NCBI GenBank assembly: GCA_963753975.1
Contig: CAVWEH010000002.1
Span: 640,001-704,000 of the forward strand
Direction: 5' to 3'
Length of the DNA: 64,000 nt
Source: an uncultured delta proteobacterium
GTDB lineage: Bacteria; Desulfobacterota; Syntrophia; Syntrophales; Smithellaceae
Positions 2,685 to 62,512 of the stretch are shown piece by piece (position 1 is the first letter of the stretch; each line of letters begins with the position of its first letter). Both the position numbers and the translations under genes were made by a program. Below the pieces are notes generated by a model, which saw nothing but the letters and a program-made list of their open reading frames with translations, made no database searches and was not told where the DNA came from.

Positions 2685-4352
2685 TTGGAAGCAAAATTTT
2701 GGCACAATAACTACGATTATAATGTCCCTACTTCAATCCGTTATCCAAAATTCCCTGTACAGAATTTAGTTCATCTGGCGGCCGCGCAGTATCCCCACAA
2801 AGCGGCTGTGGATTTCTATGGCACCGAACTATCCAACAGCCAAGTTCGCACGCAGATGCTCCGTATGGCTAACGCCCTGGTGAGTATCGGTATTAAAAAA
2901 GGTGACCGCATCGGTATCGCTTTGCCCAATTGTCCTCAATATATTATTGCTTATTACGCGATACTGTCGGCAGGCGCCATTGTCGTGAACATGAACCCTC
3001 TTTATACCCATGATGAGCTCAAATTCATGGTGGAAAACACCGGCATGAAAATAATGGTTACTTTTGACATGGTGCTGCCGCTTATGGGCAAACTGGCCAA
3101 AGATCTCGGTTTTAAACTGATAGTGACAAAGGTGACTGATTATATCAATGGCTTTGGTGTCAGCACAGCCAAGGATCTGGCACTGGAAAAAGAGTGGTAT
3201 CATTTCTCCGAATTGCTCGATAAAACAACCGATTCGCGTCTCCCCAGGGTCGATTTTCAGCCCAGTGACAATGCCTTGATCCAGTTTACAGGAGGGACAA
3301 CCGGCCTGCCGAAAGGAGCGGTTCTCACCCATGCCAATGTTGTTTCCGCCGCTTTCTGTGCTTCTCTGTGGGGTTCTTCGACGGTTATCTATGCGCCCTA
3401 TGAAAAGCGGACAGTGATGGGAATCATACCTTATTTTCATATCTATGCTAACATTTGTTGTCTTAATTGGGGCTTCCTCAGCATGGCTACTCAGATCCTG
3501 ATGCCCAAGTTCGATATGGACGAACTGCTGGCTACTATCGCCCGAATTGAACGTTTTACCTTTTTCCCGACGGTTCCGACAATGATTACGGCTATCGTAA
3601 ACCATCCTAAAGCGGGTGAACTGAAGCTGGCGGAAAAAATCGGCTATTTCTGTTCCGGCGGCGCTCCGATGCCCGTTGAGCTCATTGAGCGAGTGAGCGA
3701 TTTGGGTATCTTTTTCAGCGAGGGATGGGGAATGAGTGAGACGACATCTTCGGGGATCAGTAATCCCGGCCTGAAACACAAACCGGGCTCCATCGGCGTT
3801 CCGTACATGGATCACGATGTCCGTCTGGTCAGCGTCGATAACGGTGTCGATGAAGTGAAACGGGGCGAACCGGGTGAAATTCTCATCAAAGGGCCAACGG
3901 TAATGAGGGGTTACTGGAACAACCCGGAAGAAACCGCCAATCAACTTACCGATGGCTGGCTCCATACAGGCGATATAGGCCAGATGGATGAAGACGGTTA
4001 CATCTATATAGTTGACCGGAAAAAAGACATGATCATTGCCGGCGGGTTTAATATTTATCCGCGCGAAGTGGATGAAGTCCTCTATCAGCATCCCAAAGTG
4101 GCGGAAGCTGTTACAGTCGGCATACCGGATGCCTACCGGGGCGAAACGGTAAAAGTTTTCATCGTCTTGAAACCGGTTGAAAAAGCAACGGATAAAGATA
4201 TTATCGATTTCTGCAAACAGAAACTTGCTGCCTATAAGGTGCCCAAAATTGTTGAGTTCAGGACTTCGATACCTAAATCGGCGGTCGGGAAGATTTTGCG
4301 TAAAGTCCTGCGTGATGAGGAAATTGCTAAAAGCAAAAGCAAAAAAAAATAG
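2685..4352 (+). CDS. Long-chain fatty acid--CoA ligase (AMP-binding family)
   Basis: FTGGTTGLPKGA, EGWGMSET, GWLHTGDIG, DRKKDMII, PKSAVGKILR; AGGAGG RBS before TTG. Confidence 0.92.
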   Translation: MEAKFWHNNYDYNVPTSIRYPKFPVQNLVHLAAAQYPHKAAVDFYGTELSNSQVRTQMLRMANALVSIGIKKGDRIGIALPNCPQYIIAYYAILSAGAIVVNMNPLYTHDELKFMVENTGMKIMVTFDMVLPLMGKLAKDLGFKLIVTKVTDYINGFGVSTAKDLALEKEWYHFSELLDKTTDSRLPRVDFQPSDNALIQFTGGTTGLPKGAVLTHANVVSAAFCASLWGSSTVIYAPYEKRTVMGIIPYFHIYANICCLNWGFLSMATQILMPKFDMDELLATIARIERFTFFPTVPTMITAIVNHPKAGELKLAEKIGYFCSGGAPMPVELIERVSDLGIFFSEGWGMSETTSSGISNPGLKHKPGSIGVPYMDHDVRLVSVDNGVDEVKRGEPGEILIKGPTVMRGYWNNPEETANQLTDGWLHTGDIGQMDEDGYIYIVDRKKDMIIAGGFNIYPREVDEVLYQHPKVAEAVTVGIPDAYRGETVKVFIVLKPVEKATDKDIIDFCKQKLAAYKVPKIVEFRTSIPKSAVGKILRKVLRDEEIAKSKSKKK

Positions 4353-14905: not shown

Positions 14906-17006
14906 TCAGCTCTCCAATAAAGCAATCATCTTGCTTATGCTATTGGTGGGCAATTGGCAGGAGTAATTGGAACAGACATAAGCAGTAGCTTTGCCGCCGA
15001 TGTTTGATTGTGCCTCTAAAAAAGGTGCAATTCTTTCTATGTCCGGAAGAATCTCGGTGGCCGGCCGAAAAAGAACCACCTTATTGGGCACAAAAACAGC
15101 TCTCAACGCCTTCACCATATCCTGCGTATCCTGCTTCTTCGGGTCTCCGGCAATGACCACTTCATATGCTGGCCCAAGAGCAAAATCGAACGCTACAAGA
15201 AGCTGTGTATATGCGACCGGAAACTGGACGACTTTGGCGGAGAATATTTTCCCGATTGCGGCAGACCTACCTTCTAATTCGGTGTTTCCGGTTATCCGTG
15301 CCAGACGAAGAAGATTAAGCATGGAGACGGAATTGCCCGAAGGTACTGCACCATCGTATGCCTCTTTCTGACTAATCAGCAGTTTTTCACCGTCGTCCGG
15401 TGTAAAGTAAAATCCGCCATCTTTTTCATCCCAGAAATGATCCAGGAGATGTTTGTTCAATATGAGGGCAGTATCAAGATGGCCTGTTTCAAATGTAGCT
15501 TCGTAAAGTTCGATGAGGGCCCAGATGATAAATGCGTAATCATCTACTGTTGCCGGAATGGATGCAATACCATCCCGAAAACGGTGTAAGAGTCTTCCAT
15601 CAGAGGTGCGCATGCGGTTAAGAATAAAATCGATTGCCCGACGAGCGGCCTCAGCAAAAACAGGTTCATTAAACACCTGTGCCCCTCGCGCCAAAGCGGC
15701 AACCATAAGGCCGTTCCAATCGGTCAGAATCTTATCATCTTTGAATGGATGTATGCGCTTATCTCTCTCCGCCAAGAGTTTTTTTCTAATTTCGTTTAAT
15801 TGTTCGGTTAATTCCTCTTCAGGAATATTCAACTGCTGGACAGTTTTATGGAGCGGACTTTTGAGATGTGGAATAAAGTGTCCGGCTAGTTCCGGTTCCG
15901 AGATAATACTTGCGGCGGCATAATTTTCAGCTTTAAAAACAGCTAAAAACAAATCGGCATCTTCTTTTTTTAGAATAGCGCGAATCTTTTCTTCCGTCCA
16001 AAGATAGAACTTGCCTTCCACCCCTTCGCTGTCGGCATCTTCTGCGGAGTAAAAACCTCCATTCAGTGTCCGTCATATCACGCAATACATAAGTAAATAT
16101 TTCCCGGACCGTATTTTCGTATTCTTTCTTCCCCGTCGCCTGATACGCCTCAACGTAAGCCATGGCCATGAGGGCCTGATCATAGAGCATCTTCTCGAAG
16201 TGCGGCACGAGCCATTTTGCATCTGTTGAATATCGATGAAAGCCGAATCCAATCTGGTCATAAATACCTCCCCGGCGCATATGCTGAAGAGTCTCTTCCA
16301 CCATTTTTAGCGCTGCGGATTCATTCTTTCTTTTCCAGTATCTCATTAGAAAATAAAGGTTGTGCGGTGTCGGAAACTTGGGTGCATTGCCAAAGCCTCC
16401 GTAACGCCGGTCAAAACTATGGACAAAAGCTTCAAAAGCTTTGTCTAAAGTCTCTTTTCCAAGATTCTGGGCTGGCGCTTTTATGTTCAATGTTTTTAGC
16501 CCGCGGGTAATATCATCGGCTGCTTTTACTGCTTCCTCACGGTGGGTAGTCCATACTTTTCTAATCTGGGGAATCAAGTCCAGCATTCCAATTCTTCCGT
16601 ACATTGTCTCTCGGGGAATATATGTAGCGGCAAAAAAAGGCTTTTTATCGGGCGTCATCAATATCGTCAGGGGCCAACCGCCGCTATGTGTCATCAGCTG
16701 ACAGACTGTCATATAGATGTTGTCGATATCGGGACGTTCCTCACGATCTACCTTGATGCAGACGAACACATCGTTCAGCATTTGCGCCACTTTTTCATCG
16801 GCGAAAGATTCATGCTCCATGACATGACACCAGTGGCAGGTGGAATAACCAATGGAAAGAAAAATCGGTTTGTCCGCCCTACGGGATTTTTCGAAGGCTT
16901 CCTCGCCCCAGGGATACCAATCAACAGGGTTTTGCGCATGCTGAAGAAGGTAGGGGCTTTTTTCATTCTTTAAGCGATTTTGCTTCATGACGCTTTCATT
17001 TTTCAT
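14906..17006 (-). CDS. Thioredoxin-domain YyaL/SSP411-family protein, one +1 frameshift near 16061
   Basis: [41 protein letters not shown]; removing one T restores [19 protein letters not shown]. Confidence 0.9.
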
Positions 17007-23679: not shown

Positions 23680-24453
23680 TTATTTTTGTTTTTTCTTGCG
23701 TGATTTTTCCAAAGACAACATTTCGTTCATTTGAACTTTGCGTTCATCACGGGCAAAGAGCAACGCGCATATCGACGATTCAATATCCAGTGCAGCCATC
23801 TTATCCATGCGCGGCACAATAGAACAAAGATTTTTTAATTCTTCGATGGCCTTCGCCGAACGTTTCGCTAACATTTCAGCCATGCTTTCCGCCACCTGCA
23901 TAAACTTCTCCGGGGGTGCAACTTTATTGACCAAACCGATTTTTAACGCTTCATTAGCACCAATAGGTTCACCCAGCATTACTATTTCTTTTGCTTTGGT
24001 TATACCGACAATTTGACTCAGGGGATAAAAAAAGGGGTTAAATCCAAATTTTAACTCCGGATGACAAAAAATAGCGCTCTCAGAGGCTACGACAAGGTCA
24101 CAAATAGTCACCAAATTAAAACCGCCGCCTAAGGCAATACCTCCTACAGCCGCGATTACCGGTTTTTTACACGAATATATCTTTTTCAAATACTTCATCA
24201 TTGATAAAAGAAATTCATCACCTTCCTCACTGGAGAGGCTAGACATTTCTTTTATGTCCATGCCTGCTGAAAAAACATATTCTCCACCGGTAAGAATTAT
24301 AACTCTAATTTCAGAGTCACCCTCCAAAGCGACAAAAACCGCATACAATTCCTGGCGCATTTCTTTGGAAATTGCGTTCATCTCATGGGGACGGTTTAAT
24401 TTAACGATAGCGTAACCATTTTTCTTTTCGATAATTATTGTTTTATAGTTCAT
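23680..24453 (-). CDS. Enoyl-CoA hydratase/isomerase family protein
   Basis: LNRPHEMNAIS, FSAGMDI, KPVIAAVGGIALGGG, PELKFG. Confidence 0.9.
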   Translation of the reverse strand: MNYKTIIIEKKNGYAIVKLNRPHEMNAISKEMRQELYAVFVALEGDSEIRVIILTGGEYVFSAGMDIKEMSSLSSEEGDEFLLSMMKYLKKIYSCKKPVIAAVGGIALGGGFNLVTICDLVVASESAIFCHPELKFGFNPFFYPLSQIVGITKAKEIVMLGEPIGANEALKIGLVNKVAPPEKFMQVAESMAEMLAKRSAKAIEELKNLCSIVPRMDKMAALDIESSICALLFARDERKVQMNEMLSLEKSRKKKQK

Positions 24454-34991: not shown

Positions 34992-35681
34992 TCATCTGAG
35001 TATAACAAAAGGAATCTCTTTTTCCAGACGTTTTTTTATTTTCTCTAATTCATCATCCGGATAACTTTTCTCTTTAAGAAACTTTTTGTTCAGCGTTTTT
35101 GTAGGCGCAAATTTCTGTAAGGCATAGCGCTTGGCGCCGGAAATCAATTGGGCAATTGCCAAAATATCTTTTGCCGCAAGCTGAGATTTCACAACCGTTG
35201 TACGAAACTCATGCGGGATTTTCGATTTAAGAATAAGTCTAATGCTTTCTTCTATTAAATTTGAATCGACAGGAACTTTCACGATGCTCCTGTATTTTTC
35301 CAGCGGCGCCTTAATGTCCATAGCGATGAAATCCAGCAATTTTGCATCAATAAGCTCTTTAATAACTTTCGGCTGTGTGCCATTGGAATCAAGCTTAACG
35401 GCAAAACCCAATTTTTTGATTTTCATAATAAAGGAAAGTAAATCTTTTTGAATGGTCGGCTCACCGCCGGTGATCGTTACCGCATCAAGCTTTCCCACCC
35501 GTGTCGCCAAAAATTCCAGAGTTTTTTTTTCTTCCAAGCAGGGGCCGAATAATTTCGGATCCACCAGTTCCGGATTATGACAATACGAACACTGGAAATT
35601 ACATCCCTGTAAAAAAACAACAGCACAAATCGCATCCGGATAATCAATGAGCGATACTTTCTGCAGGCCGCCGATTTTCAT
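34992..35681 (-). CDS. nrdG: Anaerobic ribonucleotide reductase activating radical SAM protein
   Basis: SLIDYP, GCNFQCSYCHNPEL, ITGGEPT, EFRTT; downstream of nrdD. Confidence 0.93.
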   Translation of the reverse strand: MKIGGLQKVSLIDYPDAICAVVFLQGCNFQCSYCHNPELVDPKLFGPCLEEKKTLEFLATRVGKLDAVTITGGEPTIQKDLLSFIMKIKKLGFAVKLDSNGTQPKVIKELIDAKLLDFIAMDIKAPLEKYRSIVKVPVDSNLIEESIRLILKSKIPHEFRTTVVKSQLAAKDILAIAQLISGAKRYALQKFAPTKTLNKKFLKEKSYPDDELEKIKKRLEKEIPFVILR

Positions 35682-35716
35682 TTTCCCATTTCTTTATGGT
35701 TATGGAATCAAATATT

Positions 35717-35743
35717 AAAGCCCCAGCAGACCGAAGGGGCTTT
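35717..35743. terminator. Hairpin between nrdD and nrdG
   Basis: aaagcccc...ggggcttt. Confidence 0.5.
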
Positions 35744-35778
35744 CCGATAATTATATTTTTTACAGACTATGTATATTA

Positions 35779-37884
35779 TTACTGTAATCTAAATACCTGT
35801 CGCGCGTTAAATTCCGCTTGTTTTCCTTTGTTCCACTGCTTGACCGGACGCAAATAACCGACAACGCGTGAGTAAACTTCACAATCGTCGTCACAGGTCG
35901 GACACTTCGGCTTTTCGCCTTTAATGTAGCCGTGGGATGGACACACGCTGAAAGTAGGCGTAAAAGTGAGATAAGGCAAATGGTAGTTAGAACAAATTTT
36001 ACGAACCAATGTCTTTACCGCCTGGGGATTATCCACCCGCTCACCGGCAAAAGTATGAAATACGGTGCCGCCTGTATATCTGGTTTGAATTTCATCCTGC
36101 AAATCCAATGCTTCAAAAATATCGTCTGTATAGTTAACCGGCAGTTGCGTGGAATTGGTATAAAACGGCTCGCCTTTTTTCGATCTGCCGTTGCCGTTTC
36201 CGGCGCAGATTATATCGGGATATTTTTCTTTGTCTATCTTGGCCAGGCGATATGAAGTTCCTTCCGCCGGTGTTGATTCCAGATTGTAATTATTTCCCGT
36301 TTCCTTCTGAAAATCGATGAGCTTATTGCGCATAAAATCGAGAACGTTTTTGGTAAAGGCCTGACCTTCTTTCGAGGCAATATTTCTCCCCAATAAATTC
36401 AAACAAGCTTCATTCATTCCGACCAGTCCAATAGTGGAAAAATGGTTTTTCCAATATTCAGCAAATCTTTCTTTCACATTGCGTAAATAATATTTAGTGT
36501 AAGGATAAAGATCGCTGTCGGTAAACTTCTCCAGAACCTTTCTTTTTGTCTCCAGACTTTCTTTGGCCACCTCCATTAGGTTTTCCAGCCGTTGCATGAA
36601 ATCCTTTTTGGATTTTGCCAAATAGCCGATACGCGGCATATTTATCGTAATAACACCGATGGAACCGGTAAGCGGATTGGAACCGAAAAGCCCGCCGCCT
36701 CTCATCTCCAACTCCCGATTGTCAATGCGCAGACGGCAACACATGCTGCGCGCATCTTCCGGATTCATGTCGGAATTGATAAAATTGGAAAAATAAGGCA
36801 CGCCGTATTTCGCGGTCATTTCCCATAAATCTTTTAAATTGGGATCATCCCAGTTAAAATCACGCGTAACATTATATGTGGGAATGGGAAAGGTAAAAAC
36901 TCTGCCTTTGGCGTCGCCTTCGGCCATGACCTGCAGAAAGGCTTTGTTGAAAAGATTCATTTCTTCCTGAAATTCTTTATACGTTTCTTTCTGCGGCTTA
37001 CCGCCGATGATCACGCTTTGATCCGCGTAATATTTGGGAACGGTGACATCCAAAGTTACATTGGTGAATGGAGTTTGAAAACCGACTCTGGTCGGCACAT
37101 TGATATTAAAAATAAACTCCTGGAGCGCCTGTTTTATTTCCGTAATATTTAATCCATCATAACGAATATAAGGCGCCAAAAGCGTATCAAAATTGGAAAA
37201 AGCCTGCGCTCCGGCCGCTTCCCCCTGCAAGGTATAAAAGAAATTAACCACCTGCCCCAGAGCGCTGCGCAAATGTTTAGAGGGCTTGCTTTCCACCTTG
37301 CCGGACACCCCACGAAAGCCCTGCAAAAGCAAATCATATAAATCCCAGCCCACACAATAAACGGAAAGCAGGCTCAAATCATGAATATGAAAATCACCTT
37401 CGTTATGCGCTTTTTTGATTTCCGGCGTATAAATTTCATTTAGCCAATAAACTTTGCTCACTTCCGAAGAAATATAATTATTCAATCCCTGCAACGAGTA
37501 ATCCATGTTGCTGTTCTCGTTTATTTTCCAATCCGATTTCTTCAAATATTTATCAACAAGATCAACTTCCATTTTGTTGGCAATATCCCTCAAGCGGGCG
37601 TGTTGATCACGGTATATGATGTAAGATTTTGCTGTTTTGCGGTAAGTGGAAAGCAGGAGAACTTCTTCGACGATATCCTGAATTTCTTCAACAGAAAAAA
37701 CATTACCGTCAAAAAGCTTTTCGGCAAGGTTTAAAACCTTGATGGTCAACTTTCGCGCTTCCCGAAGGTCAAATTCGCCGGTGGCAACGCCGGCCTTGGC
37801 GATGGCATTGGTAATTTTTTCCGCATTAAACTTAACTAAACGGCCGTCTCTCTTTTTGATTTTTGTGTTCATGAACTCCTCCAT
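35779..37884 (-). CDS. nrdD: Class III anaerobic ribonucleoside-triphosphate reductase with ATP cone
   Basis: IKKRDGRLVKF ATP cone, HIHDL, RSMCCRL, TPAEG, CPSHGY..CPTC, YSRVVGYLRP glycyl-radical motif. Confidence 0.96.
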   Translation of the reverse strand: MEEFMNTKIKKRDGRLVKFNAEKITNAIAKAGVATGEFDLREARKLTIKVLNLAEKLFDGNVFSVEEIQDIVEEVLLLSTYRKTAKSYIIYRDQHARLRDIANKMEVDLVDKYLKKSDWKINENSNMDYSLQGLNNYISSEVSKVYWLNEIYTPEIKKAHNEGDFHIHDLSLLSVYCVGWDLYDLLLQGFRGVSGKVESKPSKHLRSALGQVVNFFYTLQGEAAGAQAFSNFDTLLAPYIRYDGLNITEIKQALQEFIFNINVPTRVGFQTPFTNVTLDVTVPKYYADQSVIIGGKPQKETYKEFQEEMNLFNKAFLQVMAEGDAKGRVFTFPIPTYNVTRDFNWDDPNLKDLWEMTAKYGVPYFSNFINSDMNPEDARSMCCRLRIDNRELEMRGGGLFGSNPLTGSIGVITINMPRIGYLAKSKKDFMQRLENLMEVAKESLETKRKVLEKFTDSDLYPYTKYYLRNVKERFAEYWKNHFSTIGLVGMNEACLNLLGRNIASKEGQAFTKNVLDFMRNKLIDFQKETGNNYNLESTPAEGTSYRLAKIDKEKYPDIICAGNGNGRSKKGEPFYTNSTQLPVNYTDDIFEALDLQDEIQTRYTGGTVFHTFAGERVDNPQAVKTLVRKICSNYHLPYLTFTPTFSVCPSHGYIKGEKPKCPTCDDDCEVYSRVVGYLRPVKQWNKGKQAEFNARQVFRLQ

Positions 37885-38118: not shown

Positions 38119-38787
38119 TTGAAGATAGACAAAAAGAAAGCAGCTAAGATAAAAGGGTTTTTGGATGAGCGCGAAGCTCACTATCTTTATAAACTAGCTC
38201 TGGATGCCGGCAAAACAGGTCCGTGCCTGGAAATCGGCAGTTATTGTGGAAAATCAGCTATATATTTAGGTACAGCCTGCAAAAGAAATGGATCAGTTCT
38301 ATTTTCTCTTGATCATCATGCAGGCTCGGAGGAGCAGCAGCCGGGCGAAGAATATTTTGATCCGGAATTACTGGATCAAGAAACAGGGAAGATAGATACT
38401 TTAAGATTTTTCCGCAAGACGATTGCCGAATTTGACCTCGAAGATACGGTAATTCCGATTGTCGGCCGTTCGGAAACAGTCGGACGCCTCTGGCAAACAC
38501 CTCTGAACTTGATTTTTATTGACGGAAGTCACGCTTACGAATCCGTACTTAACGATTACAAAATTTGGGCAAAACATTTAATCATCGGCGGCTATCTTCT
38601 TTTTCATGATATTTTCCCCGATCCGGCGAAAGGAGGCCAAGCACCTTATAAGGTTTATCAAATTGCAGTAGCTTCCGGATTATACGAAGAAATGCCGCTG
38701 TGCGAGTCGCTGGGAATATTAAAACGAAAAAAAAATGGCCCATGCCAGCCGTCGCGTTATTATGCCCAGCGCCAGTTACAGCCTTGA
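38119..38787 (+). CDS. Class I SAM O-methyltransferase (Methyltransf_24-like; resembles mycobacterial MeT1)
   Basis: GFLDEREA, LEIGSYCGKS, DHHAGSEEQQPGEEYFD, FIDGSH, HDIFPDPAKGGQAP. Confidence 0.85.
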   Translation: MKIDKKKAAKIKGFLDEREAHYLYKLALDAGKTGPCLEIGSYCGKSAIYLGTACKRNGSVLFSLDHHAGSEEQQPGEEYFDPELLDQETGKIDTLRFFRKTIAEFDLEDTVIPIVGRSETVGRLWQTPLNLIFIDGSHAYESVLNDYKIWAKHLIIGGYLLFHDIFPDPAKGGQAPYKVYQIAVASGLYEEMPLCESLGILKRKKNGPCQPSRYYAQRQLQP

Positions 38788-40337
38788 TCGGAAATTGCTG
38801 CTTGCAAATAACCGCGATTAACATAATCACTGATCGTATTATTAACTACACGGGAATTCGCCTTTGTGCCGGTAGTAATTCTTTGGCAGAGTTCCCCTAA
38901 TGCTCTATCCTTTGAACCTTCAAACAAAGCTGGTTCAATAAAACCAATTTTTTCAATGAGATCTTCTTTTAAGATTTTAAAAGTTAAATTCATCCGCATG
39001 TGACCTTCCACGCGCATATCGTCCAGAGGAGTATTCGTGCCCTTGCCATACCGGTCCAGCACCTTCTGCCAGAGGCCGTTCATCTCCGTATCGAACATAG
39101 CTACAAAATCACGAATATCCTGTGGCTCAAGAGAAGAAGTTTTTACAATGGCATCATTGGCGTCGTATTTTGCCCAATCTTTCGTTAATATTTCCAGATC
39201 GTACTCGTCGACTTTCTCACACAACGTCGTGCCGGGAAAAGGCGCCAGGTAATGATATCCGAAAAGGATTTTTAAAGATTCCGCAAACGAGGCCGTTTGA
39301 TTCAATGTTTCTTTTGTTTCACCCGGCAGCCCGACCATAAAAGAAGCGTGGGCGAGCATGCCCGACTGCTTGCACATATTAACCGCGTTCTCAGCCTGCG
39401 TAAGCGTTATGCCCTTCTTGACTCTTTTGAGTATTTCCGGGTTGCCTGATTCGACGCCGAAGCTGACGCTGTCACAACCTGCGGCAGCCATGGCATCAAA
39501 CATTTCCTGGTTGACAGTATCCACGCGGGCAAAGGCACTCCAGGTAAATTTCAAGTTTCGTTCTTTAATTCCGTTGCATATTTCTTTTACCCGCTTTGTA
39601 TCCGAAGCAAAAAGGTCATCGGCAATATTAATCCGTTTAAAGCCTAAATTGATAATTTGCTCCATTTCATCCAAAACCAGCTGCGGATTGCGGCGGCGCA
39701 CTTTCGAGCCAACCATCTTTCGCCCTAGACAAAAAATACATGAATGGGGACAGCCGCGGCCCGTAATCATGCTGACGGGATAGCCAAAGGCCTGATAGCG
39801 TGAGATCGGCAACAAGTGCCGCGCGGGCATTGGTATGCGGTCCACATCCACAATGAAATCTCTTTTACCGTTATTGACGATTTCACCATCCTGCCGAAAA
39901 GCGATACCGCGAATACCGCGCCATTTATTTTTCTGCTTCATGAGCGGCGCGAATTCGACAATCGTATCATCCGCCTCGCCAATAAAGACCAAATCTATTT
40001 CCGGATAATTGCCGAGTGTTTCTTCCACGGTAAAGGATACATGGGGACCGCCTATCAGCGTGAGAATTTCCGGATTACAGCGTTTCACGTCGCGTAATAT
40101 CCGCTGCGCGTCATAAAAATTCATGGTTACGCAACCTACTCCTACAGCGTCGGGCTGGAATTCCGCCAATTGGCTGGCGAGTTTTTCCTTAGAATAACAA
40201 GAAATAATATAGTCGAAAATGCATACCTCACAGCCTGCCGCTGCGAAGGCTGCAGCAACATAAGTGATGCCCAATGGCGGTGAAGGAAATTCTTCCAGTG
40301 GATATGGTGCGGCAATAATAGCAACGCGCAATGTCAA
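38760..40337 (-). CDS. B12-binding domain radical SAM protein
   Basis: PPLGITYVAA, IGGPHVS, GEAD, TGRGCPHSCIFC, GVESG, FMVGLPGET, PFPGT. Confidence 0.9.
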   Translation of the reverse strand: MTLRVAIIAAPYPLEEFPSPPLGITYVAAAFAAAGCEVCIFDYIISCYSKEKLASQLAEFQPDAVGVGCVTMNFYDAQRILRDVKRCNPEILTLIGGPHVSFTVEETLGNYPEIDLVFIGEADDTIVEFAPLMKQKNKWRGIRGIAFRQDGEIVNNGKRDFIVDVDRIPMPARHLLPISRYQAFGYPVSMITGRGCPHSCIFCLGRKMVGSKVRRRNPQLVLDEMEQIINLGFKRINIADDLFASDTKRVKEICNGIKERNLKFTWSAFARVDTVNQEMFDAMAAAGCDSVSFGVESGNPEILKRVKKGITLTQAENAVNMCKQSGMLAHASFMVGLPGETKETLNQTASFAESLKILFGYHYLAPFPGTTLCEKVDEYDLEILTKDWAKYDANDAIVKTSSLEPQDIRDFVAMFDTEMNGLWQKVLDRYGKGTNTPLDDMRVEGHMRMNLTFKILKEDLIEKIGFIEPALFEGSKDRALGELCQRITTGTKANSRVVNNTISDYVNRGYLQAAISDQGCNWRWA

Positions 40338-41074
40338 TCTCCTTTACGTGGAAACAGCATGGATCTAACCCACCCGAACAGCGTATTTTTTTCCCGCATG
40401 GCCCGTTCAACGGAATCAAAATACTCGTTCATCTTTTGGGGATCAGCCAGCCACTGCGATCTTGATTTTATCGGTTTGTTCGCATCCAGGTACTTTATTA
40501 CAGAGGCGGGGTTTCCGGCGGCAATAGCATTGGCGGGAATATCCTTCACGACAATTGAGCCGGCGCCAATAACCGCATTGTCACCTATCGTCACACCTTT
40601 GCCGATAATTGCACTATCACCGATCCACACATTTTTGCCGATCTTTACCGCCTCGGTGTTGCCGATGGGTAAACTGCGATCGTAAAGATCGTGCCAATCA
40701 GAATCGGTAATTAAAACATTTTGGGCCACCATGCAATCATCATCCAAAGTAACAGCTGTGGCCGATGATATTCTTGTCCCCGGGCAGATTATACAACAAC
40801 GGCCGATATCAATTTTACCCGATTTTTCATCGGCCGACCAGACGGTAAGCCTTATTTTCTTATCGGATGTGGCCACGAATGTAACATAGTCACCGATCGA
40901 TACCGGCCCCTGATATATTTTCACTGCCCATGGCTTCATAAATCTCAAACCATGGCCGAAATATTCACACTGAGGAGCTAAAAAATATTGCGCATACCAG
41001 GCTTCAAACTTGTCGTATAAATGCTTAATATAATAAGGTCGATGATCTCTTCTCAATGACTTACTCTTTTCCAA
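40334..41074 (-). CDS. Hexapeptide-repeat O-acyltransferase (maltose/galactoside acetyltransferase-like)
   Basis: ITDSDWHD, IGKNVWIG, KGVTIGDNAVIGAGSIV, AAGNPA. Confidence 0.88.
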   Translation of the reverse strand: MEKSKSLRRDHRPYYIKHLYDKFEAWYAQYFLAPQCEYFGHGLRFMKPWAVKIYQGPVSIGDYVTFVATSDKKIRLTVWSADEKSGKIDIGRCCIICPGTRISSATAVTLDDDCMVAQNVLITDSDWHDLYDRSLPIGNTEAVKIGKNVWIGDSAIIGKGVTIGDNAVIGAGSIVVKDIPANAIAAGNPASVIKYLDANKPIKSRSQWLADPQKMNEYFDSVERAMREKNTLFGWVRSMLFPRKGD

Positions 41075-41146
41075 ATGATTTATTTAAAATGAAACCACAA
41101 AAAACAACCGTCAGAAGAAGCCGGTAAGGTTTGCAGCAGATTACTA

Positions 41147-42178
41147 TTATTGCTCCTGCCAATATTCGTGATTAAAAAGTTTTGCTGCCGGAGTTATTCC
41201 GTTAATTGCATCCCAGGCTATCAGTACCGCTGCCGCTGTCCAACTGGTTTTTTCTTCCGGCCAGATAATACTGTCCGGAAACGTGACACCCATCCAGTAG
41301 GAACCATCAGGAAATCTCTTATCACCAAGCCAGCTAAATATTGTTTTAGCCCGTGAATAATCTTCAATGGCCGCCAGGGTCAAAACCAGCTCTGCCGTTT
41401 CCGCCATTGTCACCCAGGGCCGGTCGCTGACACAACGTACCCCCCATTCGGGAACGACAAATTTTTCCCAGGACTTGGCTATGCGCTTCTTTGCTTCTTC
41501 ATCGCTTACAGCACCGCATAAAACCGGATAATACCAATCCATGGAATAACGGGCTTTGATCATATTGAAAAGATCAGGCCGGTTTTTTATCGCCTCTCCC
41601 AGGGAATCTTTTGCCGTGAGCCAGCTTGGTCTTTTTTTACCCAGAATCCTGGAGATTTCCAGTGCGCATTTAATACTCATATAAATGGAGCTGCAACCGG
41701 TTAAAAGGGACATTTTATCAATGGCGCCCGCCGAATTTCTTGCCCAGTAAATTTCACCCCCCGGAGCCTGCATACTGATCGCATATTGAATGCCCCGGGA
41801 AACAGAACTCCACATATACTTCAGAAATTCAACATTTCCTGTAATGAGGTAATGATGAAAGACGCCAACGGCAATATAAGCCGCAAAGTTTGTTTCTTTT
41901 GTGGAATTGATAACCTCTCCGTCCTTGATTTCGGACCACCAACTACCGTCGGCAAGCTGATTTGCAACTAACCATTGATACGCGCGCTCGGCCTCCGGAT
42001 AAAGTCCAGCCATGCTTAAACCCATCGCGCTTTCAATATGATCCCAGGGATCAGTCTTGCCACCTACCGACCAGGGTATTTCACCGCTTTCTTTTTGCAT
42101 GGACACAATAAACCCGGCGATTTTTTCAACGTCAACCGGTTTAATTTCTTCACTCAAAGAAAGGTTTAAACGGTCCAT
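41147..42178 (-). CDS. (alpha/alpha)6-barrel 'prenyltransferase-repeat' protein, probable glycoside hydrolase (MmpH-like)
   Basis: IPWSVGGKTDPWDHIESAMGL, QLADGSW, ETNFAAYIAVGVFHH, LLTGCSSIY, YSMDWYYPVL, WVTMAETAE, WPEEKTSWTAAAV. Confidence 0.7.
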   Translation of the reverse strand: MDRLNLSLSEEIKPVDVEKIAGFIVSMQKESGEIPWSVGGKTDPWDHIESAMGLSMAGLYPEAERAYQWLVANQLADGSWWSEIKDGEVINSTKETNFAAYIAVGVFHHYLITGNVEFLKYMWSSVSRGIQYAISMQAPGGEIYWARNSAGAIDKMSLLTGCSSIYMSIKCALEISRILGKKRPSWLTAKDSLGEAIKNRPDLFNMIKARYSMDWYYPVLCGAVSDEEAKKRIAKSWEKFVVPEWGVRCVSDRPWVTMAETAELVLTLAAIEDYSRAKTIFSWLGDKRFPDGSYWMGVTFPDSIIWPEEKTSWTAAAVLIAWDAINGITPAAKLFNHEYWQEQ

Positions 42179-42185
42179 AATATAA

Positions 42186-42867
42186 TCAACCTTTTTTTAG
42201 ATAAAACACAATACTTTTACCGATAAAGGGATTTAAAATACTTTCCATAACTCTTATAGATCGCGGCTTACATATTATTATATCCCATTCCAGAAATCTT
42301 TTATAATATCGAATAAGCGCATTCTTTTCATTTTTTAAACCAACCAGGCACTTGAGCCACCGATAAGGCGCATGGAGAGCGTGCTTGTAATTAATTTTCC
42401 AACAGTTTTTGCAGCTTTTTCTTTTTATAAATGCGGATGTGCCCGCCCTCTTCACTATAATAAGCGGAAGAAATCAGCCAGTAAATTTTTTCGGAAAAAT
42501 ATCGCGGCACGCTGACCACCAGATACCCTGCGGCTTTAAGGATGCGCACCAATTCTTTGAGGGCATTTTCATGTTCGGGTATGTGTTCCAACATTTCCGA
42601 ACAAATGACACGATCAAAAGAAGCGGAAGCAAAAAGCAAATTTTTAATGTCGACACGAGAAACGAGATAATTATTCGATAAGGCGTCCGGCATATTTTTT
42701 AAGGACGTCAGGGCATCGTTCAGATCAGAGCTATTTCTGTCTATACTGATAATTTTCAAATCAGGCATTTTTGCCAGCTTCCGCAAATGCTTGCCCGCCG
42801 CACCGGCATCCAAAACAAGACTGCGAGGTTTTAATTTCAGTTCATGAAAATCTACGGCGACCATCAA
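42186..42867 (-). pseudogene. Class I SAM methyltransferase (MeT3-like), eroded SAM motif and frameshifting deletion near 42410
   Basis: VLDAGAAGKH, ICSEMLEHIP, SVPRYFSEKIYWLIS..EGGHIRIY in one frame; HALHAPY.WLKC..FLEWDI..LNPFIGKS in another. Confidence 0.8.
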
Positions 42868-44104
42868 TTACCTCCCGGTAAACCTCGACTACTTGCTGCG
42901 CTGCTTTAGACCAGCTGAAAACTGAATTCACTCTTTCTAAACCCGCCTCAGCATATTTTACCCTCTCATCAGGGTTATTGAATAAATACGTTATGGCTTT
43001 GATCAAGGCGGAGGTATCGGCGGGCGGCACAATCATAGCTGCATCACCCACAACTTCCGGCAAGGCGCCGCCGCTTGTTGTAATCAACGGAACGCCGCAA
43101 GCCATTGCCTCCACGGCCGGTATGCCAAATCCTTCATATAAAGACGGAACAACGGCTATTGTTGCAGCCGAATAGTAATCGGCAAATTCTTCATTTTTAA
43201 TACGACCGGTAAACTGGACTATATCACCAATCCCCAGCCTGGCCACCAGTTTTGTAATTACTCCGTTTTTTTTTGGTTCTCCGATAACTGTTAATTTTAC
43301 AGATCGTTTTTTTCTTAATTCCGATACAGCCTCCAACAAATAACTCAACCCTTTTAACGGTATATCCGCGCTATTGGTCACGATAATGGAATTTTCCGGC
43401 CGTGATCCATTTTGAGCCGGATAAAAATACTCGTTGTTGATTCCGTTATGAACCACGTGGAATTTATCTTCATCAATAGAGAATTCCTGAGCGATATCCT
43501 TTTTGGTAAATTCCGATACAGTTACAATATGGGAAAGCTGGCGCGCTACTCTCATCTGCATTTTAATAAAAGTGTACCAGCGGAAAACACGAAATTTCTC
43601 ATAGATTGTTTTTGCCGCTTTAAATTCCTCCTGTTTATCAACGGTTATCGGATGATGAATAGTTGCTATTGTCGGAATAATTTTTCTGGCGAGCCTTCCG
43701 ACCCCGTAGGAAAGACTCTGATTATCATGAACAATGTCATAATGCATTCCGCACTTCAGTAGATAACGGTAAGCCCGCTCGCCAAAAGTAAAAGGTTCCG
43801 GGAAACTGCCCGTGCAGAAATTCAAAAATTCATACATGTTGATCGGATAGATCAGATCCCTTATCCTTTCCGGACGGAAAAGATGATTGGGATTATACAT
43901 ATCCAGGTTCGGCAACTTGTGCAGACACACTTTCGGGTCGAGATGGGGATAGGGAGGTCCTGATATTACATCCACATTATGGCCGATATCAACCAGTGCC
44001 TTGCTTAGATGTTTAATGTAAACACCCTGACCGCCGCACGTGGGATTACCTCTATAGGTCAGCAGGCATATTTTCAACGGCCGGGAATCTCGACTTTTCT
44101 TCAC
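42842..44104 (-). CDS. GT4-family glycosyltransferase (ManT-like)
   Basis: YRGNPTCGGQGVY, SGPPYPHL, GSFPEPFTF, HDNQSL, TIHHPIT, SADIPLKG, PSLYEGFGIPAVEAMACG. Confidence 0.9.
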   Translation of the reverse strand: MKKSRDSRPLKICLLTYRGNPTCGGQGVYIKHLSKALVDIGHNVDVISGPPYPHLDPKVCLHKLPNLDMYNPNHLFRPERIRDLIYPINMYEFLNFCTGSFPEPFTFGERAYRYLLKCGMHYDIVHDNQSLSYGVGRLARKIIPTIATIHHPITVDKQEEFKAAKTIYEKFRVFRWYTFIKMQMRVARQLSHIVTVSEFTKKDIAQEFSIDEDKFHVVHNGINNEYFYPAQNGSRPENSIIVTNSADIPLKGLSYLLEAVSELRKKRSVKLTVIGEPKKNGVITKLVARLGIGDIVQFTGRIKNEEFADYYSAATIAVVPSLYEGFGIPAVEAMACGVPLITTSGGALPEVVGDAAMIVPPADTSALIKAITYLFNNPDERVKYAEAGLERVNSVFSWSKAAQQVVEVYREVIDGRRRFS

Positions 44105-44751
44105 ACACAGGCCCTCTGCACAAGCTTTTGTGAATTTTCAAACATCGCGGCAATTTCAACATCGGTCAAACCCGCGCCGCGGGCGATATTTGTCGCCATT
44201 TTACTGCCAACGAAATCACTGGGAGCATGTGCATCGTTATCAAGAACAAGCTGCGCCTTAAATTTTCCGGCCATCTGAGCAACATGCCCATTCGTCAGGC
44301 TGTGATTTTTCCGGGTGGTAATCTCCAGATAAATTCCTTTTTCGGCGGCCAGCTTCGTTTCTTTTTCAGTCAAAAGTCCGGGATGGGCTAAAATATCTAT
44401 GGAGGAGTTAAGCGCCGCCAAATTGGTGCCGGGAGGAACAGGTTCGGCCAAAGTTTCACCATGCACAACAACTATCTTTGCTCCCAAAATTCTCGCCTCA
44501 TCAGCAAGCGCGGCTATATCTTTAGGGTGAACATGAGTAAGTTCAATGCCGGGAAGCACTGTGATATTCCCTTTTTCCGTTATTTTTAAGCAAACCTTAA
44601 TAATCCTGGGCAGAATGAAATCAATATTGGAATGATCGGCATGATCGGTAATGGCTATAGCTTTATACCCGGCCGAAAAGGCGCGTTGCGCCAACTCCGT
44701 GGGAATTAAGTCGCCGTCACTGAAAAGGGAATGTGTATGCAGATCAATCAC
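44101..44751 (-). CDS. PHP-domain phosphoesterase
   Basis: DLHTHSLFSDG, ITDH, GIELTH, ILAHPG, DNDAH; 4-nt overlap with the GT4 start. Confidence 0.88.
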   Translation of the reverse strand: MIDLHTHSLFSDGDLIPTELAQRAFSAGYKAIAITDHADHSNIDFILPRIIKVCLKITEKGNITVLPGIELTHVHPKDIAALADEARILGAKIVVVHGETLAEPVPPGTNLAALNSSIDILAHPGLLTEKETKLAAEKGIYLEITTRKNHSLTNGHVAQMAGKFKAQLVLDNDAHAPSDFVGSKMATNIARGAGLTDVEIAAMFENSQKLVQRACV

Positions 44752-45587: not shown

Positions 45588-45706
45588 ATTGAATTTCTCT
45601 GCGGCAAAGCCGCCGAGCGTCTTCGATTCATGAGGAAATACTAATTCTGTATTCGGTCACTTGCCCCGCAGCAAGCTGCGCGGCGTGCGCTCGCCAATGA
45701 ATTCAT
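45588..45706. mobile_element. About 120 bp MITE-like element, copy B
   Basis: ATTGAA..TCTTCG..AGGAA..GTATTCGGTC.CTT.CCC..GCTCGC..GAATTCA, colinear with 13980-14101. Confidence 0.7.
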
Positions 45707-46122
45707 TTTTTCAAAAGCAGAAATGTTGCCGAAACACGGCAGATGTTTTTCCCCTTGTCATCCTTAACCAGGCAATCTCCGATGATCAAACTTTGACCTT
45801 TTTTAAAAACAGTGGCATCGGCAATAAGCTCCCCACTATTAACTCCCGCCAGAAAATTGCTCTTTAGCTCGATAGTGGTTAAACCCTCTTCCGGGCTTAA
45901 TTGAGTCATCATCGCATGGGCAATAGCCTCATCGGCCAGAGCAACGATAAGCCCGCCTTGCATCATTTTCGCTCCCTGCAGATATTCCGGGCGCACTGGC
46001 ATTCGAAACCGGGCATAACCATCTTTTAAATCAGCCAGAGTTACGCCTAAATAATCCAGAAAGGGATTTATGCCTTTCTGACCATCACAAATTTTTTTCA
46101 GGTAGAGGTTGTAATTGAAAAT
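45703..46122 (-). CDS. PaaI-family hot-dog thioesterase, probable ATT start
   Basis: NPFLDYLGV..GYARFRMPVRPEYLQGAKMMQGG..ALADEA, TTIELKSNFL; AAAGGAG RBS 6 nt before in-frame ATT at 46122. Confidence 0.85.
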   Translation of the reverse strand: MFNYNLYLKKICDGQKGINPFLDYLGVTLADLKDGYARFRMPVRPEYLQGAKMMQGGLIVALADEAIAHAMMTQLSPEEGLTTIELKSNFLAGVNSGELIADATVFKKGQSLIIGDCLVKDDKGKNICRVSATFLLLKK

Positions 46123-61233: not shown

Positions 61234-62512
61234 ATGAATCAACCATCAAAGCTGGAAACTCACACTGGACCTCATTTAACCAGAATTCAAAGATTCTTTC
61301 ATTTTATCCGCCGCCACTGGATAATTATTATTGTATCCATTGTAATTATCATTGCGGGCAAAATATTCCTTGTGCCAAACATGGTGAAGTTTGGTACAGG
61401 TAAAAAATCTTTTGATCAGCCTCCACAGCCTGTAACGGCCTTAATGACAAATAAAGCTGATTTTGATGTATATCTGAAAGGGTTAGGTACCGTCATTCCC
61501 ACAAACACCGTTACTGTCAAATCTCAGGTCAGTGGCCAGCTAATGAGCGTGCACTTTAAAGAAGGACAGCATGTTAATAAAGGTGACTTGATTGCAGAAA
61601 TTGATCCACGCCCTTTCCAGGTTCAACTTATGCAGGCCGAAGGGCAGCTTGCCCGTGACGAAGCGTTTCTGAAAAACGCCGAGAGCTGATCTGGCGCTTT
61701 ACAAACAGTTGCTTGCCCAGGATTCTATTGCCGCGCAACAGGTAACAACGCAGGAATCATTGGTGAAGCAGTACCGCGGTGTAATTGAAACAGACAAGGG
61801 TCAAATCGCCAATGCTAAACTCCAGCTTACTTATGCCCGCGTTATCGCCCCGATTACCGGACGCGTCGGTTTGCGGCAAGTTGATCCCGGCAATATGGTT
61901 CAGGTTAACGATCCCAACGGTATAGTGGTAATCACACAACTGCAACCGATCACAGTCGTATTTTCACTGCCTCAGGACAATTTGACGATTTTGATGAAAC
62001 GCTGGAATGCCGGGACAACCTTACCTGTCCAGGCCTATGATCAGGAAGGCAAGATATTACTGGCCAGCGGCAAACTGCTCGCAATTGACAATCAGATCGA
62101 TACTACAACAGGAACAATTAAACTGAAGGCGATATTTGACAATAAAGATAACAAACTTTTTCCCAACCAGTTTGTTAATGTTCGGCTGAAAGTGGATACT
62201 CTTCGTGATGCAACTGTAATGTCCACTGCTGCAGTGCAGCGCGGCAGTATCGGTACTTTTGCTTATGTGGTCAAAGATGACAAAAGTGTAACTGTAAGGA
62301 TGTTGAAACTAGGACCTACTGAAGGCGATAATGTCGTCGTAATGGAAGGCCTGGTACCCGGAGAATTGGTGGTGACCGTCGGAGGTGATAAACTGCGTGA
62401 AGGCACCAAAGTAGAGATTATGACGCCGAACAGTAAAGAAGCATCAGTGCGTACAGACAAAACAACCACAGCTCCCAAACAAAAAACGCGGCAGACTTCA
62501 GCACCAAAGTAA
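61234..62512 (+). CDS. mdtA: RND membrane-fusion protein MdtA-like, +1 frameshift near 61683
   Basis: [64 protein letters not shown]. Confidence 0.88.

Follow-up and report, generated by a model that had tools for sequence, protein, structure and literature searches.

The stretch of DNA analysed here ("the window"; 64,000 nucleotides, positions 640,001 to 704,000 of contig CAVWEH010000002.1 in assembly GCA_963753975.1) comes from a Smithellaceae bacterium of the order Syntrophales, an anaerobic, fatty-acid-type organism, and it raises the question whether the gene cluster at its positions 38,119 to 44,751 directs the synthesis of a methylmannose polysaccharide (MMP). MMPs are 11-14-mers of alpha-1,4-linked 3-O-methylmannose that bind acyl-CoA. 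The mycobacterial cluster, manT-pmeT3-mmpH-meT1, corresponds to MHAS_04402-04405 in M. hassiacum and MSMEG_6481-6484 in M. smegmatis, as given in PMC9883506 (PDB 7qsg, 7qsj, 6g7d). Based on our findings we regard the locus as the Desulfobacterota form of this cluster and consider the chances about even that its cycle runs without the methyltransferase MeT3 and gives a short cytoplasmic alpha-(1->4)-mannan; that relatives make an MMP-like mannan is distinctly more probable, again as judged from sequence.

An initial annotation had described a tight run of six genes on the minus strand and a convergent methyltransferase gene on the plus strand, and all seven genes are found with the coordinates, motifs and strands it gave, neighbours overlapping by 4, 26, 4 and 28 bp or being separated by gaps of 8 and 72 bp. 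The methyltransferase gene of the run, however, is not intact. The features are as follows (activities are predicted, E-values refer to solved structures):

44101..44751, minus strand: PHP-domain protein of the PRK06361 family (NF004981 above cut-off), a co-oriented neighbour
42842..44104, minus strand: ManT orthologue, a putative GT4 alpha-(1->4)-mannosyltransferase, intact (7qsg, E 2.3e-105)
42186..42867, minus strand: MeT3 pseudogene, putative 3-O-methyltransferase, its frame broken relative to the 234-aa frame of relatives
41147..42178, minus strand: MmpH orthologue, a putative (alpha/alpha)6 alpha-endomannosidase, intact (7qsj, E 4.1e-99)
40334..41074, minus strand: AcT, a left-handed beta-helix O-acetyltransferase (Hexapep), lineage-specific addition, intact
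38760..40337, minus strand: rSAM, a B12-binding radical S-adenosylmethionine (SAM) enzyme (B12-binding and Radical_SAM domains), lineage-specific addition, intact
38119..38787, plus strand: MeT1 orthologue, a putative 1-O-methyltransferase, open frame with lost stop (6g7d, E 1.2e-56)

ManT, MmpH and MeT1 are almost certainly true orthologues of the mycobacterial MMP enzymes. Their matches to solved MMP enzymes (E 1e-56 to 2e-105) are far beyond chance: 7qsj is the best solved match of MmpH, 6g7d the sole one of MeT1, and the GT4 structure that follows 7qsg in the ManT search reaches only 1.9e-29. We take 7qsg and 6g7d to be ManT and MeT1, respectively, which fits the residue numbers in PMC9883506. 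ManT, MeT3, MmpH and MeT1 of six actinobacterial loci each retrieve the window gene as best match in the genome, and the window ManT retrieves the cluster gene first in 5/5 actinobacterial genomes, i.e. the reciprocal best hits stay inside the MMP families, with 41-48% identity between the window genes and the studied enzymes. In M. hassiacum numbering, transferred by alignment, MmpH keeps the catalytic acidic residues D47, D50 and E262 as well as W49, N101, F102, T163, M215, Y219, E265 and W315. Outside Actinobacteria, 186-188 of 188 copies of MmpH and 92/92 of ManT have the same residues at the catalytic positions, copies being loci including duplicates rather than genomes. Residues G15, H142, K240, E313, G314, F315 and E321 of M. 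hassiacum ManT correspond to G24, H150, K251, E324, G325, F326 and E332 here, with L291 and L317 replaced by isoleucine, and H66, H67, E72, Q74, D135, H138 and D164 of MeT1 are constant in 63 deltaproteobacterial and 29 actinobacterial copies. Orthology, catalytic residues and gene order thus bear out the MMP family assignment that had first been made from sequence motifs. The neighbours of MmpH in the ESM Atlas are mostly Actinomycetota, and MmpH was found on plasmids in one record, a Nonomuraea replicon. As to GDP-mannose supply, a mannose-1-phosphate guanylyltransferase domain scores 335 bits, below the 373-bit cut-off of the bifunctional family because the isomerase-like half is encoded elsewhere.

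MmpH matches occur in 31 of the 36 other genomes of the family, in 46/61 relatives overall (fragments included) and in 53/401 genomes of the phylum. Co-occurrence was analysed in 74 genomes (59 MmpH-positive, 15 MmpH-negative) out of 92 intended, using per-gene cut-offs that we chose and leaving out the family members whose loci were read separately. ManT, MeT3 and MeT1 are present in 58, 56 and 56 of the MmpH-positive genomes, respectively, and in none of the MmpH-negative ones. A synteny survey, as suggested with the initial annotation, finds the order ManT>MeT3>MmpH with convergent MeT1, known from Mycobacterium, Nocardia and Rhodococcus loci, kept across Syntrophales, which carry AcT and rSAM inserted before MeT1. 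In the MmpH tree (midpoint root) most Desulfobacterota form one deep clade (support 0.988), and three others with simpler clusters branch separately; a recent transfer from Actinobacteria is not supported, as MmpH lies in this deep separate clade. The gene trees conflict, ManT, MeT1 and PHP grouping with the host's own genus and MmpH with genus g6, and the cluster is thus a recombinant mosaic. Comparison of the window cluster with loci L111, L114 and L170 likewise gives conflicting trees between genera g1 and g6, which indicates that the operon has often recombined internally. Many Desulfobacterota (L156-L159, L162, L164, L167, L161) have a split cluster, with MmpH-AcT in one place and ManT-MeT3 in another, and two genomes (L151, i.e. 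G097:C60, and G401:C2) have two MeT3 homologues each, one by ManT and one by MmpH.

The two added genes follow MmpH as well. AcT is present in 52/59 MmpH-positive and 0/15 MmpH-negative genomes, rSAM in 50/59 and 0/15, respectively, so that both belong to the pathway, though not universally: some members of the phylum have only one of them or neither. Neither orthologue was found in 5/5 actinobacterial genomes (best E for AcT 3e-15). The nearest solved relatives of AcT are maltose, galactoside and polysialic-acid O-acetyltransferases (E ~1e-19), and its D126-W127-H128, constant in 147/147 locus copies, aligns to the histidine region of sugar O-acetyltransferases. rSAM combines a B12-binding and a radical SAM domain (CxxxCxxC at 196); its model (pLDDT 92) has CysS, AprD4, TsrM, OxsB, MgmA and TokK as fold neighbours (15-24% identity, TM-score 0.57-0.68), whereas the protein falls below every NCBIfam cut-off. 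For its own C-terminal domain no named relative was found, the ESM Atlas giving only sub-0.9 matches. By analogy we predict that rSAM C-methylates a sugar carbon, methylation being merely the commonest outcome of the class, since OxsB and AprD4 are not methyltransferases. In each of three distinct arrangements (L053/L163, L149/L160, L237) the gene adjoins the cluster, and genomes of family f52 have two or three copies of it.

A link of the cluster to fatty-acid metabolism has comparative support. Among 80 genomes picked for family spread, acyl-CoA dehydrogenase matches (PF00441; matches rather than copy numbers, counts near 41 meaning at least that many) have a median of 21 and a minimum of 8 in 40 MmpH-positive genomes and a median of 5 in 40 MmpH-negative ones (p 7e-9; per Mb 4e-8), p-values that are overstated because kin are not independent. 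The difference holds within the order (17 versus 7, p 0.001) and within genus g3, where three MmpH-positive genomes have 24, 31 and 26 matches and three MmpH-negative ones 2, 4 and 4, whereas the control family PF00534 shows no difference (9.5 versus 7, p 0.2). As many fatty-acid-rich genomes do without it, the cluster is not required for such a metabolism.

In this genome, MeT3 has decayed. Its frame stops after 158 codons (stop at 42391-42393) and the C-terminal third lies in another frame. Compared with relatives, three bases are lost in the SAM-binding glycine motif (~42795-42802), a 23-bp deletion at ~42400 shifts the frame and 3 bp are inserted at ~42273; comparison with related contigs suggests an extra compensated +1/-1 pair. 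Moreover, five residues that 208-209 of the 209 intact homologues share, T4, R27, P79, C130 and W178, are altered. The break might be an assembly error and the cluster complete, as the six-contig assembly has other frameshifted genes and the 23 bases are present in related contigs of other runs. However, those contigs differ at 4-10% of sites and belong to other organisms; base-calling slips do not look like a 23-bp deletion together with a 3-bp insertion and five substitutions at positions that 209 homologues keep constant, and two independent assemblies of the nearest relatives show different deletions in MeT3. An assembly error is therefore extremely unlikely.

These nearest relatives are the two sequences with the closest MmpH, genome G010 and locus L169 (clade support 1.0), which have also lost MeT3, via different lesions: G010 retains ~100 bases of it, no copy being found elsewhere in its 82% complete genome, and L169 has an internal deletion of ~480 bases. 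Of the 12 further genomes of the genus with MmpH, 10 have a single intact MeT3 frame. G050 and G325 were rejected as further losses, since their contigs end there, and G002, in which all genes, NrdD too, are frameshifted, was excluded as informative for the counts. MmpH dS (synonymous divergence) between this genome, G010 and L169 is 0.25-0.39, and only about one in ten of the invariant MeT3 codons has changed here, fewer than expected if MeT3 had evolved neutrally since the split; therefore, at least two separate losses in the clade are likely. In a distant lineage with an MmpH 53% identical, MeT3 has an internal deletion (L247:1399-1620) as well, with ManT and MmpH intact. No MmpH residue special to the MeT3-less clade was found in the active site; an S-to-A exchange next to a subsite is common to all three MeT3-less sequences in the family panel, but failed the wider filter.

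A genome-wide search found no second MeT3 orthologue. With MeT3 a pseudogene and nothing orthologous to take its place, the cluster of this genome cannot by itself give canonical MMP; the locus is not a complete MMP cluster, although it may work like one. Thus, of the acyl-CoA-buffering methylated glycan proposed initially, the link to fatty acids has gained comparative support, but canonical MMP cannot be expected here, and the proposal holds better for the relatives.

How might the cluster work? In relatives with intact MeT3, ManT would extend short mannosides from GDP-mannose and MeT3 would methylate the chain at O3. MmpH would cut mature chains into primers, MeT1 would cap the new reducing ends, AcT would O-acetylate and rSAM would C-methylate the chain. 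The decorated chain may then bind long acyl-CoA, easing beta-oxidation in organisms rich in acyl-CoA dehydrogenases. Here, as in G010 and L169, methylation at O3 would be lost, and acetyl and C-methyl groups would probably give the hydrophobic face instead.

Several observations weigh against this proposal. The ratio of nonsynonymous to synonymous substitution rates (dN/dS) of ManT is 0.19 and 0.22 here, above the 0.05-0.14 of the 18 MeT3-intact pairs; decay in its early stages would explain this, and so would an adjustment to a different acceptor. In MeT1 the stop codon is gone, which makes the protein ~16 residues longer than in relatives, and about 5 further genes of ~50 tested look broken (of 58 stretches compared, 10 were flagged, including MeT3 and four that only mirror cluster genes on the opposite strand). 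At D293 of ManT, where contact with guanine is predicted, all 48 actinobacterial copies agree, but this genome has N304 and the 92 deltaproteobacterial copies have N, D, Y, H or G. The MeT3-less genomes lie at the low end in acyl-CoA dehydrogenase matches, with 10 in this genome (E up to 0.001) and 6 in G010. Of the 40 MmpH-negative genomes 25 have fewer than 8 matches, but 15 have at least 8, so that the correlation, drawn among related genomes, is no causal proof. The acetylation in Streptomyces offers no direct precedent, as orthologues of AcT and rSAM were not found in the five actinobacterial genomes. Finally, the only defect of the mycobacterial mmpH mutant was reduced growth rate at 15 C (PMC9883506).

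Some of these points would be expected if the pathway worked in the relatives and were dying in this clade, with MeT3 going first and the other genes not yet having caught up: the raised ManT dN/dS, the lost MeT1 stop, the low acyl-CoA dehydrogenase counts and a background of about one broken gene in 10, albeit in a small sample; in addition, the mycobacterial enzymes depend on the O3 methyl group. The contrast between MeT3 and its neighbours argues in the other direction. In a ten-sequence panel 12/125 invariant codons have changed in MeT3, but only 19/892 in ManT, MmpH, AcT, rSAM and MeT1 together (Fisher p 1e-4), and at least three indels in the 0.7 kb of MeT3 compare with no internal indel in ManT, MmpH, AcT and rSAM of this genome or the parts of G010 read; the chance that 3/3 indels fall in MeT3 is 0.002. 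Thus MeT3 has at least three indels and 12 changes at invariant sites, and none of the five genes, 5.3 kb in all, is disrupted, although many more lesions would be expected under neutrality. Pairwise dN/dS of the five genes is 0.09-0.22, that of MmpH 0.12-0.14 among the three MeT3-less sequences and 0.09-0.15 in intact pairs. Moreover, G010 has lost nearly the whole of MeT3, yet its MmpH, AcT, rSAM and MeT1 are open. Hence, the five genes look maintained while MeT3 decays, and we consider a dying pathway rather unlikely.

The variability of ManT D293 in the lineage would also fit a role with no tie to acyl-CoA, whether in making a lipid-linked or surface glycan or on a different sugar, as would the frequent action of left-handed beta-helix acetyltransferases on surface polysaccharides and an identity to the studied enzymes of only 42-48%. 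However, genes for a transporter, a flippase or a ligase accompany the cluster in none of the loci read, the MmpH pocket has kept all its residues, and the presence of the cluster tracks acyl-CoA dehydrogenases rather than the number of glycosyltransferases, which makes such a product very improbable.

A further candidate for the missing methyl group is the methyltransferase MT2 (G000:C5:346015-346884, G000 being this genome), the top non-orthologous match to the MeT3 profile in this genome (79 bits versus 53 for the next). In hhalign the two families align with 99.7% over 155 columns, extending past the SAM motif. MT2 lies in an O-antigen-type locus of the ABC-transporter kind, next to a GDP-mannose dehydratase and two glycosyltransferases. 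Fusions of its family with that glycosyltransferase family occur, and Pseudomonas species have homologues of the latter at 48-50%. The locus (G000:C5:332208-346884; L256, L264) comprises a Wzt-like ABC ATPase, the GDP-mannose dehydratase, an FkbM methyltransferase, MT2 and the two glycosyltransferases, which are related to each other and have homologues in Pseudomonas and Collimonas; compared with G010, the second of these two carries a 1-bp insertion close to its end. Neither the PDB nor plasmids, phages or viral contigs yielded a useful match to MT2. We liken this locus to pa5455-pa5459 of P. aeruginosa and MT2, presumably, to the PA5457/PA5459 family. D-rhamnose is 6-deoxy-D-mannose. The tip of the P. 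aeruginosa A-band is alpha-1,4-linked 3-O-methyl-D-rhamnose (PMC11019553), and pa5455-pa5459, encoding two glycosyltransferases and two methyltransferases, are required for this tip (PMC3560663).

Might MT2 thus replace MeT3 in trans, leaving the product 3-O-methylated? Its rank as best paralogue of MeT3, the alignment beyond the SAM motif, the context of its locus and the P. aeruginosa tip would suit this role, as would its distribution in the genus, where only the MeT3-less G000 and G010 have it among 15 genomes (4/41 relatives overall). These two are close kin, however, so that the shared MT2 represents one event, and G023, G024 and G027 carry MT2 yet keep MeT3. Moreover, MT2 is only 28% identical to MeT3 and keeps 25/48 MeT3-invariant residues, a weak conservation, with six other paralogues keeping 17-22. 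We therefore regard a replacement by MT2 as unlikely. In G027 a stand-alone MT2 homologue (G027:C2:3288989-3289843) lies ~14 kb upstream of the MMP cluster.

A wider picture, more speculative and less likely than not, can be drawn from a cycle without MeT3: across Desulfobacterota, anaerobes that oxidise fatty acids would make an acetylated, radically C-methylated alpha-1,4-mannan as cytoplasmic acyl-CoA carrier, gained and lost with the beta-oxidation arsenal, and one Smithellaceae clade would repeatedly have dropped MeT3, its self-priming cycle now working on chains that have no O3 methyl group or that owe it to a methyltransferase taken over from the O-antigen pathway.

The surroundings of the cluster add the following. 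The PHP gene, which the initial annotation had counted in the run, is placed there but is probably a housekeeping neighbour outside the pathway: it is present in 5/5 MmpH-negative genomes tested, which also rules out a role as tailoring phosphatase, and lies away from the cluster in most loci outside Syntrophales. Three genes of acyl-CoA metabolism, likewise cited in the initial annotation, are real:

2685-4352: acyl-CoA ligase, elsewhere in the window
23680-24453: enoyl-CoA hydratase, elsewhere in the window
45703-46002: PaaI-like thioesterase, in the window

The first two, however, are 14-34 kb distant from the cluster. MeT1 is flanked by an anaerobic ribonucleotide reductase and its activase (window 34992-37884), a neighbourhood retained in many Syntrophales loci. 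Promoter and terminator scans of the locus gave no excess over shuffles. Elsewhere in the window (14906-17006, 61234-62512, 1793-2287), DUF255 thioredoxin and HlyD-type proteins seem frame-split and a DctP gene seems truncated.

The idea that MMP sequesters acyl-CoA goes back about fifty years, and the sole mutant described has a cold-growth defect only (PMC9883506). Here, a cluster that tracks the acyl-CoA dehydrogenase load across a phylum and within one genus provides comparative evidence for the acyl-CoA role, and syntrophic fatty-acid oxidisers, which are rate-limiting in anaerobic lipid digestion, may be a place to test it. From AcT and rSAM we would expect a glycan not described so far, perhaps a polysaccharide C-methylated by radical chemistry, and the MeT3-less clade may serve as natural knock-out of MeT3, the one MMP enzyme with activity yet to be proven. 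The initial annotation knew of no description of such a glycan in this lineage, and our literature searches listed no paper on MMP outside Actinobacteria. The distribution survey of PMC9883506 covers actinobacterial genomes; its supplementary file 1 (author reply), however, mentions MmpH homologues in some Proteobacteria, 40-51% identical and with conserved binding residues, which are set aside there.

Among known systems, an acetylated MMP (AMMP) exists in Streptomyces griseus (cited in PMC9883506), and an MMP with acetyl groups is likewise predicted here; in contrast, an AcT orthologue is found in 0/5 actinobacterial genomes tested, S. griseus not being among them. rSAM shares the B12-binding and radical SAM architecture of CysS, TokK, TsrM, MgmA, OxsB and AprD4, but differs by its low identity (15-24%) and its own C-terminal domain. 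The P. aeruginosa pa5455-pa5459 system resembles the predicted pathway in the 3-O-methylation of an alpha-1,4-linked manno-configured chain, and a similar-looking locus is present at G000:C5:332-347 kb, whereas the A-band is a surface O-antigen and not linked to the MMP cluster. From the mycobacterial MMP cluster the locus differs in its anaerobic Gram-negative host, AcT and rSAM between mmpH and meT1, a broken MeT3, a variable ManT D293 and its own deep MmpH clade, but shares with it four orthologous genes (MeT3 being broken here) in the same order and orientation, 41-48% identity and all catalytic residues of MmpH and ManT.

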